Source of the DNA: Eremomyces bilateralis CBS 781.70
Lineage: Eukaryota
Strand: one strand, 5' to 3'
Assembly: GCA_010015585.1 (NCBI GenBank)
Contig: ML975157.1
Length of the DNA stretch: 64,000 nucleotides
Below, piece by piece: positions 36,037 through 59,300 of this stretch; the first letter of the stretch is position 1, and every line of letters begins with the position of its first letter. The notes beneath the pieces were generated by a model. The model searched no databases. It had not been told where the DNA came from and saw only the letters and a program-made list of their open reading frames with translations. Position numbers and translations under genes: made by a program.

Positions 36037-36564
36037 TTCGATGGAATCCTTGGTATATACTACAGGTTGACAGAAAAGCTGCCTTATGAACCCGTGAATA
36101 TGCCTGGACCTTGACTGGTATATTCCTCTTCCCGCGTCTTGGTTATCACCGAATTCCTGGATGGTCGGGTTCTCGCCTCTCCAGCGCCTTAAACATTCGA
36201 GCGCCATGGTTGGAGTAAGATTCCCCGGATTCCGCCGCCCGCTCCGCTCCGGCCCCACTTCCGCCCTGTTCCTCCCACTTCCGCCCCAATCTTAGCGAGA
36301 ATCCCGCACACCTCCCTCCTCTCCACCGCACCATCCCAGCCGGAGACACAACTTTCGCATGAAGCTGTGTCAAAGTCGTGATTTATCACCTCCCCGAGCC
36401 CACAACGAAACCGCCCAACTCTTCCTCGGTACGTGATTGCAGTTCCGTCGGAGCGCACATCTTTTGCACATCACTCTGCTCCTCGACTCGTCGGTCCCAG
36501 CTAATTGAGCCTGACAGCCCCGACCTTGAACTTCCGCATCTCAACCGAATAGATCTCAGCAGCC

Positions 36565-37471
36565 ATGGATCAAGCAAAGCTTGCACGAATGCAAGCGTCG
36601 GTGCGCATTGGTGAGTGATGATTTCATGCAAATTCGTAGCAATGTCGAAAGATGCTGTCATTATCTCCGTTTGAGAAAACCATGGCTGACTCCGGATATA
36701 GGGTGAGTGATGTCCACTTTCGGGTTTTGGATTCTATTCAAGCCGACGAGCACTACGACGGCATCTACCGCTTGCGAAATCCATCGGAACACGCGGCATG
36801 GTGGTCTCGCTCGTCGATGCAGTGTCGGGTGCTGCCAGTTTTCGATAAACATGAGCGGTCATTTCAGCTAGGATGGGCAAAGGCTAACATAATATCCTCT
36901 AGTGGCAAGGGCACACCGCGCCGCAAGGTCAAGAAGGTCCACAAGTCATCAGGCACCGATGACAAGAAGCTTCAAGCGGCGTTGAAGAAGCTCAATGTGC
37001 AGCCGATCCAGGCCATCGAGGAGGTCAACATGTTCAAGGCGGACGGCAATGTCATTCATTTCTCGGCACCTAAAGGTATGCGCGATATGTCTAGTCTCCC
37101 AGTACCATCCATGATGGAATCGATGCCTTTCTTCTCTTTAGCTTGTCTACAGCACCCTATCTCATGCCGCTACTAGCTCCCGCTCGTTCATTTACTAACT
37201 ATATGATCTCCTAGTTCACGCTGCGGTTCCCGCCAACACCTTCGCCATCTACGGCAACGGCGAAGAGAAAGAGCTCACCGAACTTGTCCCCGGTATCCTG
37301 AACCAGCTGGGCCCCGACAGCCTCGCGTCGCTACGAAAGTTAGCCGAGAGCTATCAGCAGATGCAAGGCGCCGGTGGCAAGGGTAAGGAGGGCGAGGGCG
37401 AGGCGGACGACGATGACATCCCGGACCTGGTGGCCGGCGAGACCTTCGACAAAGATGAAGGCGTCGAGTAA
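36565..37471 (+). CDS. EGD1: Nascent polypeptide-associated complex beta subunit (BTF3)
   Basis: Exons 36565-36610, 36702 (1 nt), 36903-37075 and 37215-37471 give [69 protein letters not shown]. Confidence 0.96.
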
Positions 37472-38057
37472 AGTCGCCTGGGGAGCCAGGTTCCCGAACG
37501 AGGCCGGACAGCAGGACGATCGCGCGAGGACGCCGTACGGTGATAAGGGACGCGCTCCTTCCACGGGGGCTGGGATTCTACTAGGGAGTTTTAAGAGTAC
37601 GCATTTCTCTATCCAGGTGGACCGTTCTGGAAAGGAACCGGAAGAAAGGATTCAGGCACGCATGCATTTTCCAGCGATCAAAGCAAACGAGTCAAAAGTG
37701 CCTTTTCCATCCTCAACCGGTTTGGTGCTGTGTGTTGCGTGATCGTCAATCCATTGAGTCGGCCGGTAGGATTCTCATGCGTCTGGAAAGTAACAATTGC
37801 CCATCACGTTTCGATATGATAATACCGTCGTGGAAACAACTGGAGATTACCGATATCATACTAGCACTACAGCCGGCTGGCTGAAACGGGAATACGCATG
37901 GTATCTCCCTATTGTTGTACTGTACAATGCAACGCTTAGTGCATGCATTCAATCAACAGCCACCCAATGCCGAGAACCCCTGGGAAGGATGGTATACTAA
38001 TCATGACTCATTAGGCCTCCATAAACAACGCTATACATAATCTTGCCCCGCTGAGAA

Positions 38058-58330: not shown

Positions 58331-59300
58331 NNNNNNNNNNNNNNNNNNNNNNNNNNNNNNNNNNNNNNNNNNNNNNNNNNNNNNNNNNNNNNNNNNNNNN
58401 NNNNNNNNNNNNNNNNNNNNNNNNNNNNNNNNNNNNNNNNNNNNNNNNNNNNNNNNNNNNNNNNNNNNNNNNNNNNNNNNNNNNNNNNNNNNNNNNNNNN
58501 NNNNNNNNNNNNNNNNNNNNNNNNNNNNNNNNNNNNNNNNNNNNNNNNNNNNNNNNNNNNNNNNNNNNNNNNNNNNNNNNNNNNNNNNNNNNNNNNNNNN
58601 NNNNNNNNNNNNNNNNNNNNNNNNNNNNNNNNNNNNNNNNNNNNNNNNNNNNNNNNNNNNNNNNNNNNNNNNNNNNNNNNNNNNNNNNNNNNNNNNNNNN
58701 NNNNNNNNNNNNNNNNNNNNNNNNNNNNNNNNNNNNNNNNNNNNNNNNNNNNNNNNNNNNNNNNNNNNNNNNNNNNNNNNNNNNNNNNNNNNNNNNNNNN
58801 NNNNNNNNNNNNNNNNNNNNNNNNNNNNNNNNNNNNNNNNNNNNNNNNNNNNNNNNNNNNNNNNNNNNNNNNNNNNNNNNNNNNNNNNNNNNNNNNNNNN
58901 NNNNNNNNNNNNNNNNNNNNNNNNNNNNNNNNNNNNNNNNNNNNNNNNNNNNNNNNNNNNNNNNNNNNNNNNNNNNNNNNNNNNNNNNNNNNNNNNNNNN
59001 NNNNNNNNNNNNNNNNNNNNNNNNNNNNNNNNNNNNNNNNNNNNNNNNNNNNNNNNNNNNNNNNNNNNNNNNNNNNNNNNNNNNNNNNNNNNNNNNNNNN
59101 NNNNNNNNNNNNNNNNNNNNNNNNNNNNNNNNNNNNNNNNNNNNNNNNNNNNNNNNNNNNNNNNNNNNNNNNNNNNNNNNNNNNNNNNNNNNNNNNNNNN
59201 NNNNNNNNNNNNNNNNNNNNNNNNNNNNNNNNNNNNNNNNNNNNNNNNNNNNNNNNNNNNNNNNNNNNNNNNNNNNNNNNNNNNNNNNNNNNNNNNNNNN
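58331..59300. other. Assembly gap (970 N) inside the hAT element
   Basis: Run of N. Confidence 1.

Follow-up and report, generated by a model that had tools for sequence, protein, structure and literature searches.

How does a coding sequence keep its reading frame when the direct joining of its first two coding exons at canonical splice sites leaves it one nucleotide (nt) short? The question is raised by a gene for NAC-beta, the β subunit of the nascent polypeptide-associated complex (EGD1/BTF3 type), on a 64,000-nt stretch of contig ML975157.1 of Eremomyces bilateralis CBS 781.70 (GenBank assembly GCA_010015585.1), referred to here as the window. Exon 1 ends in ...GTG CGC ATT G at 36610 and is followed by GTGAGT from 36611, and the first letters of exon 2, at 36903, are T GGC AAG. 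When 36610 is joined directly to 36903, the frame shifts, as a sequence-only reading of this DNA had claimed, and translation runs into a stop after 42 codons. That reading proposed that a single base within the intervening sequence, G36702, is an exon in its own right. The motifs on which it relied (the boundary at 36610/36611, the branch site GCTGAC, the acceptor TAG, G36702, the donor GTGAGT, and the boundary at 36903) are all present where it placed them, and we conclude that G36702 is very probably a genuine single-nucleotide exon of NAC-beta, lying between two complete U2-type GT-AG introns of 91 and 200 nt. Translation with G36702 included gives a 158-amino-acid NAC-beta with the motif RIGGKG, whereas use of a weak donor at 36615 would give RIGDGKG. 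The 158-amino-acid product has both the NAC domain, assigned via the database protein P0007 (precomputed Pfam PF01849), and the N-terminal motif RIGGKGTxRRK, of a type that we take to be ribosome binding. The codon of Gly-17 would receive its first G from exon 1, its second G from the micro-exon, and its third base from exon 2, and the conserved motif would thereby be restored by an exon of one base.

Transcript evidence was taken from the assembled contigs of one public run, X1, compared over positions 36200 to 37900. X1 behaves as RNA: it has three intron-sized joints, with no cover over introns 1 and 3 or over the intergenic DNA upstream. The main contig (record 4 of X1; 3,952 nt, depth 1755) has a joint from 36610 to 36902 at which 291 nt are skipped, equal to 91 plus 200, and shows no differences from the window on either side of it. 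The spliced messenger RNA (mRNA) contig reads ATTGGTGGCAAG, which translates as RIGGKG and is the complementary DNA (cDNA) sequence that had been predicted. With 291 nt skipped and not 292, the mRNA holds one base more than a direct joining of the exons. The joint is ambiguous over 3 nt, and none of its four placements (GT..TA, TG..AG, GA..GT, and AG..TG) is canonical. Neither a 288-nt skip, the product of the RIGDGKG donor at 36615 that had been named as the junction speaking against a one-base exon, nor a 292-nt skip, in which the G is lost, was seen among the X1 contigs, which drop rare forms. Three marks of a single-nucleotide exon are present at this locus: an extra base in the mRNA, flanking AG and GT with full splicing signals, and no single canonical intron.

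The same arrangement was found in related loci. Metagenome contigs were scanned with an alignment led by exon 2, and the best 80 of 398 confirmed relatives were parsed, 77 loci by pattern and one (L025) by hand. In 78 of the 80 there is an intervening sequence with the exon 1 end R[IVTL]-G/GT and the exon 2 start AG/N-GGC, and a direct join is 1 nt short; the remaining two are L028, a cDNA-like contig already spliced, with the reading RI-GGA-GKG, and L071, which is truncated at 65 nt before exon 2. An internal AG-G-GT is present in all 78 intervening sequences, so that the conservation of YAG-G-GT proposed as a check on the one-base exon is borne out together with the RNA joint. Among the 64 distinct sequences (63 loci and the window), each gap contains exactly one branch site followed by AG-G-GT, and the AG, the G, and the GT are invariant (64/64). 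At the donor, position +3 is A or G in 64/64 and position +5 is G in 63/64. A CTRAY branch site occurs in 63/64 for each intron, 10 to 19 nt from the acceptor and mostly 11 to 19. Intron 1 is 54 to 487 nt long (median, 95) and intron 2 is 68 to 252 nt long (median, 135), which are normal fungal sizes. Exon 2 starts with A in 23, C in 25, T in 16, and G in none of the distinct sequences, and this base appears to vary like the synonymous third position of a GGN codon.

A few features of individual loci stand apart from this pattern. The lack of G as the third base of the split glycine codon (0/64) could reflect codon bias or avoidance of a second AG-G register at the acceptor. L012 and L080 combine a long intron 1 (487 and 475 nt, against the median of 95) with a short intron 2 (82 nt), and in L012 the donor after the micro-exon is GTAGGC. 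In L019, exon 1 is itself interrupted by an additional intron (...AAGTTGGCTC/GTACGT...CTACAG/GCATGCAA...), beside the one-base exon arrangement.

The likelihood that such a configuration arises by chance was assessed with a strict composite motif, CTRAY, 3 to 35 nt, YAG, G, GTRNG. This motif occurs three times in 394,642 nt of flanking DNA of the same loci (both strands), corresponding to 0.0018 per 240-nt gap, and it is observed in 73/78 gaps. Shuffling gave it in 0.11% of 12,400 shuffled gaps. On the plus strand of the 64-kb window, 36702 is the only strict match. A bare AGGGT is common (roughly 0.19 per gap are expected, and 15% of shuffles have one), and the weight therefore rests on the full motif and its invariance. 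The interiors of the introns are at the shuffled level of identity, with a median of 0.50 against 0.50 for shuffled sequences in intron 1 (372 pairs) and of 0.53 against 0.52 in intron 2 (400 pairs), which argues that the splice signals are held by selection and are not a residue of recent common descent. A strict match is also found on the minus strand, at plus-strand coordinate 59831; chance alone would give about one in 128 kb.

The spacing of the two introns bears on how they would be removed. With one base between them, the first acceptor and the second donor could hardly be occupied by two spliceosomes simultaneously, and splice sites placed so closely would imply that the introns are removed one after the other, by intron definition, in keeping with published views on spliceosome size. 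The process would be like recursive splicing, except that one base is kept. The sequence-only reading had stated that ordered splicing is required. Sequential removal probably holds in this sense, but a fixed order does not follow: both orders pass through legal intermediates and barely change the splice-site contexts, as position -2 of the second donor is G before and after removal of intron 1 and position +1 of the first acceptor is the micro-exon G either way. With contexts nearly unchanged, the order is not fixed by sequence alone. Acceptor choice usually falls on the first AG after the branch site; in each intron the first AG past its branch site is the acceptor used, and by this rule G36702 would not be skipped.

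An indirect hint about order comes from RNA depth. Over intron 1 (36611 to 36700) the depth is zero, and the bins 36599 to 36655 and 36656 to 36712 fit 12 covered bases each. Intron 2 is represented by a separate 176-nt contig, 36701 to 36876, at a depth of 121.6 (about 7% of the mRNA depth of 1755). Since no RNA is seen over intron 3 or over the intergenic DNA upstream, this cover does not come from DNA contamination. The contig starts at 36701, two bases upstream of the donor, which is where the first 31-mer common to unspliced RNA and to an intermediate spliced for intron 1 begins; because it begins before the donor, it does not derive purely from excised intron. A stable RNA of the small nucleolar type within intron 2 was considered and rejected, as there is no Rfam match up to E 10 and the fold is ordinary (z = -0.23); inspection of intron 2 by eye found no CTGA (box D-like) motif. 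The asymmetry of depth, 0 against 121.6, hints that intron 2 is removed more slowly, after intron 1, and upstream-first removal is somewhat the likelier order.

Public annotations of this gene are consistent with an exon that predictors miss, as the sequence-only reading had expected. The exon 2 peptide matches NAC-beta proteins (precomputed Pfam PF01849) at 89 to 100% identity, with 91 to 100% across at least 120 listed matches; the closest among the matches listed is P0007, the nascent polypeptide-associated complex subunit beta of E. bilateralis CBS 781.70. P0007 agrees with the product of the one-base exon at 156/158 residues, and the sole difference, DN for GK at residues 17 and 18, falls at the junction, where P0007 reads RIGDNGT. 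A brute-force search reproduced this DN in one way only, with the donor at 36615, a 4-nt exon CAAT at 36640 to 36643, and the acceptor at 36909, a model that implies a 25-nt intron. The P0007 model is an annotation artefact and is contradicted by the RNA contig.

The error recurs in other species. We tabulated 94 named proteins, a set that does not include every named NAC-beta match, and 79 of them are wrong at or before the ribosome-binding motif. The correct M...R[IVTL]GGKGT is given in 15/94; one extra residue (RIGxGKG) appears in 20, one residue too few (RIGKG) in 8, exon 1 followed by other insertions in 37, and exon 1 is missing from 14. The extra residue x is T, N, I, D, A, E, or H, and it follows from use of the GT at positions +5/+6 of the true donor, a trace left by predictors that force the frame. 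Of 216 database proteins, 52 read RIGGKG from their own start, and those that are full length on short contigs can only derive from spliced RNA. Names among the affected annotations include Aspergillus unguis, A. filifer, models of A. fumigatus, Penicillium, Paecilomyces, Rasamsonia, Ophidiomyces, Botrytis, and Monilinia. With the pattern of misannotation taken as a proxy for compared DNA, the same architecture is probably present in Aspergillus, Penicillium, Botrytis, and the dermatophytes. The comparison thus exposes a systematic annotation error in NAC-beta that can be corrected by a simple rule.

Several observations weigh against a single-nucleotide exon or limit what can be drawn from it. 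The mRNA letters are the same for a one-base exon and for a single non-canonical intron, and the cDNA sequence alone is therefore no proof of a micro-exon. No X1 contig bridges exon 1, G36702, and intron 2; the contig over intron 2 lacks any exon 1 sequence, and its 3' end at 36876, 11 nt short of the branch A at 36887, has no explanation. Neither a splicing intermediate nor a lariat was directly observed in the X1 contigs, which represent one run whose record does not state RNA and in which rare isoforms, molecule ends, and order are invisible. The comparative loci are metagenome contigs and are not phylogenetically independent, and 5/78 fail the strict motif (two with a CTAAA branch site and one each with a GTAAAC donor, an AAG acceptor, and an N). 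Finally, the position of intron 3 is equally conserved (63/64, one with a GC donor; the 64th is truncated), and conservation of the micro-exon alone is therefore no sign of special function. The conservation of the micro-exon is about that of an ordinary intron position in NAC-beta and does not exceed it.

We know of essentially no use of TG or TA as splice dinucleotides by the U2 spliceosome, and this weighs against the closest competitor of the one-base exon, a single 291-nt intron removed in one step at non-canonical sites, either GT..TA at 36611 to 36901 or TG..AG at 36612 to 36902, with the internal AG-G-GT irrelevant. Both placements give the mRNA of the one-base exon, and the contig, whose joint is ambiguous over 3 nt and was listed as GT..TA, is equally compatible with them. 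A one-step intron, however, would need such TG or TA dinucleotides, and it leaves unexplained both the contrast in depth between the two halves of the intervening sequence and the single branch site with AG-G-GT that is invariant in 64/64 sequences with otherwise randomized interiors, at a chance level of about 0.002. We regard it as very unlikely. Still harder to credit is that the mRNA uses the weak donor at 36615 (RIGDGKG) or another cryptic junction such as that of RIGDNGT. The RIGxGKG annotations and P0007 speak for such a junction, but the only joint at this intervening sequence has the wrong length for the weak donor, the pattern of residue x is that of a gene-prediction artefact, the RIGDNGT junction requires both the CAAT exon and the 25-nt intron, and the database proteins that read RIGGKG from their own start show the motif intact. 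That the assembly lost a base at the exon boundary, with a plain phase-1 or phase-2 intron in reality, has almost nothing to recommend it: the window does have an assembly gap elsewhere (N at 58331 to 59300), but the same 1-nt deficit recurs in 78 independently assembled loci, and the RNA contig matches the window exactly on both sides of the joint.

A different kind of proposal accepts the single-nucleotide exon and gives it a regulatory purpose. The sequence-only reading had suggested that skipping of the G could act as a regulatory switch; a fuller version would have the frameshifted transcript degraded and the dosage of NAC-beta tuned in this way. The premature stop that skipping produces agrees with this proposal, as does the loss of the arrangement from 0/78 loci. 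On the other hand, no skipped isoform is present in the X1 contigs, although these drop rare variants and cannot show them, and the equal conservation of intron 3 means that persistence needs no special selection. The switch has thus gained no support, and we consider it unlikely. In its broadest form, the idea would be that an obligatory two-step splice dating from or near the base of the Pezizomycotina was selected as a checkpoint coupling NAC-beta output to splicing capacity, such that a failed second assembly or a skipped G would yield a frameshifted, degraded transcript; this, too, is improbable. A weaker form is much better supported, namely, that among known single-nucleotide exons that of NAC-beta may be the oldest and the one found most widely, occurring in both model and pathogenic molds and serving no regulatory role.

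The taxonomic spread of the arrangement was estimated by comparing the predicted proteins of the loci with 77 named proteins by blastp; five of the class assignments that follow were checked in the taxonomy. The Dothideomycetes are represented by loci matching Ophiobolus (L002, L006, and L035; 99%), Epicoccum (L011; 99%), and Pyrenophora (L048 and L079; 98 to 99%), the Leotiomycetes by loci matching Hyaloscypha (L013, L016, L031, L033, and L070; 99 to 100%), and the Eurotiomycetes by loci matching Exophiala (L030 and L049; 97 to 99%). Matches to Pseudevernia, Alectoria, and Letharia (L044, L060, and L068; 97%) and to Lasallia (L054; 96%) fall in the Lecanoromycetes, and a match to Pyronema and Wilcoxina (L032; 93 to 94%) is tentatively placed in the Pezizomycetes. 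By these protein matches, the anchored loci appear to cover the Dothideomycetes, Leotiomycetes, Eurotiomycetes, and Lecanoromycetes, and probably the Pezizomycetes. Three transcript-type proteins, defined as full-length open reading frames on contigs of about 1 kb, sometimes with in-frame 5' untranslated region (5'UTR), and matched by near-identity, read RIGGKG and are 99.4% identical to the one-base exon models of their loci: P0037 (L005), P0086 (L016), and P0009 (L035). These proteins constitute independent mRNA support in other lineages. The possibility that L005 and the P0035-type transcripts are the same sequence was rejected, as their upstream in-frame peptides differ; they are close relatives. 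Judged from these loci, the arrangement appears to be ancestral to a large part of the Pezizomycotina and about as stable as an ordinary intron of NAC-beta.

In the portions of the published literature available to us, two nuclear single-nucleotide exons are found in print, one in plant APC11 and one in a P450 subfamily of Fusarium and close relatives. The exon of Arabidopsis thaliana APC11 is an A, proven by substitution constructs, and its authors suggest that the two introns are recognized by intron definition and taken out in succession, in a recursive-like manner; both rice paralogues of APC11 are described as lacking an intron (Guo & Liu 2015, PMC4674806). As in NAC-beta, one frame-essential base lies between AG and GT within an annotated single intron, and the gene was misannotated (in GenBank for APC11). 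The two differ in that the APC11 base is an A and bench proven, whereas that of NAC-beta is a G, is supported by sequence and an RNA contig, and occurs in 78/80 loci from several fungal classes. The second case, in CYP621A P450 genes, is described from 20 orthologous genes of Fusarium/Nectria taxa (24 genes in the Discussion), which are rarely expressed and for which the available text gives no known function, and, according to the abstract, one example had been reported before it and none in a fungal gene (Nelson & Syed 2026, PMC12940212). It is closer to NAC-beta: both are fungal, both have an AGGGT core in which the G is the middle base of a glycine codon in a conserved motif, and in both a phase-1 boundary meets a phase-2 boundary across an intron that is longer than usual, with support from SRA reads in the case of CYP621A. 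NAC-beta differs from CYP621A, as far as the latter is described, in being a highly expressed housekeeping gene (contig depth, 1755) with the arrangement in at least four or five classes of Pezizomycotina. A full-text literature search, from which subscription journals were excluded, found, among the papers listed, none linking a micro-exon to NAC, EGD1, or BTF3. The NAC-beta exon is a new and far more widely conserved member of a rare known class.

Two other forms of stepwise splicing resemble that of NAC-beta. In the stwintrons of Pezizomycotina, according to the available text, the donor, branch site, or acceptor of an external intron is split by an internal one, and the external intron is canonical only once the internal one has been excised; in alternative [D1,2]/[A2,3] stwintrons the internal introns overlap by one G (PMC5587772). 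They occur in the same fungi and share with the NAC-beta arrangement consecutive U2 reactions, a nearly superposed acceptor and donor, and relevance to intron positions that differ by one nucleotide. A stwintron keeps no base between its introns, whereas in NAC-beta both introns already have their full canonical signals before any splicing and a single base stays in the mRNA. A stwintron was rejected for this locus: at the genomic level neither intron has an interrupted GT, branch site, or AG, and no split-signal parse fits. In the zero-nucleotide ratchet points of Drosophila, AG and GT are reportedly juxtaposed directly, and the site, once the upstream exon has been joined to it, is reused as a donor. 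These share with NAC-beta a juxtaposed acceptor and donor inside an intervening sequence, but they keep no base and split very long introns, whereas NAC-beta keeps one base and its introns are short (medians, 95 and 135 nt). A ratchet point was likewise rejected for this locus, as AG and GT are separated by one G, which the mRNA keeps.

The arrangement is most simply viewed as a frozen accident that could hardly be reversed without damage to an essential motif. For its origin, the scenario offered for CYP621A in the available text, in which a base is lost at a boundary within a conserved motif and the loss is rescued by a cryptic AGGGT (Nelson & Syed 2026, PMC12940212), may plausibly apply to NAC-beta, since AGGGT alone is present in about 15% of such introns. 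As an alternative, a second intron may have been gained one base away from an older one. The one-base exon lies in the genomic DNA of at least four fungal classes, and probably five, in a highly expressed and conserved housekeeping gene. If it is also present in Aspergillus, Penicillium, Botrytis, and dermatophytes, it would provide a natural, genetically tractable substrate with splice sites one base apart for the study of removal order, of the handling of two spliceosomes, and of why the base is not skipped. A mismatch of phase 1 and phase 2 around a G is, moreover, a searchable signature for further cases.

Table 1. Layout of the NAC-beta gene in the window, with the evidence for each feature
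Feature	Position	Strand	Evidence
5'UTR intron, 89 nt, GT..AG	36429..36517	+	RNA contig joint 36427 -> 36517, cut moved by +1
NAC-beta (EGD1/BTF3-type) ATG	36565	+	Motif positions in sequence
Exon 1, coding part: 15 residues and first G of Gly codon	36565..36610	+	mRNA contig cover to 36610
Intron 1, 91 nt	36611..36701	+	Donor GTGAGT, branch site GCTGAC 36685-36690, acceptor TAG 36699-36701
Probable single-nucleotide exon G, middle base of Gly-17 codon GGT	36702..36702	+	291-nt skip; ortholog invariance
Intron 2, 200 nt	36703..36902	+	Donor GTGAGT 36703-36708, branch site GCTAAC 36883-36888, acceptor TAG 36900-36902
Exon 2: T + GKGTPRRK...SAPK + G	36903..37075	+	Translation, RNA contig, NAC-beta protein matches
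Intron 3, 139 nt, ordinary phase-1 GT..AG	37076..37214	+	139-nt joint in RNA contig
Exon 3, coding part, stop TAA 37469-37471	37215..37471	+	Identical to P0007 over exon 3 part

The remaining observations concern the layout of the window (Table 1). The donors of introns 1 and 2 are identical over 11 bases, GGTGAGTGATG, at 36610 to 36620 and 36702 to 36712. Outside the consensus, the donor pairs of the other loci are not identical, and the 11-base identity is particular to the Eremomyces genome; it could be due to chance, local duplication, or gene conversion. An apparent dip in G+C content at 58 to 60 kb is caused by the assembly gap, which consists of 970 N. The 5'UTR intron has been removed in one contig (depth 1874 at the joint) and is kept in another, a 147-nt contig over 36400 to 36545 at depth 1243; the two forms point to alternative splicing or to a second start of transcription within the intron.

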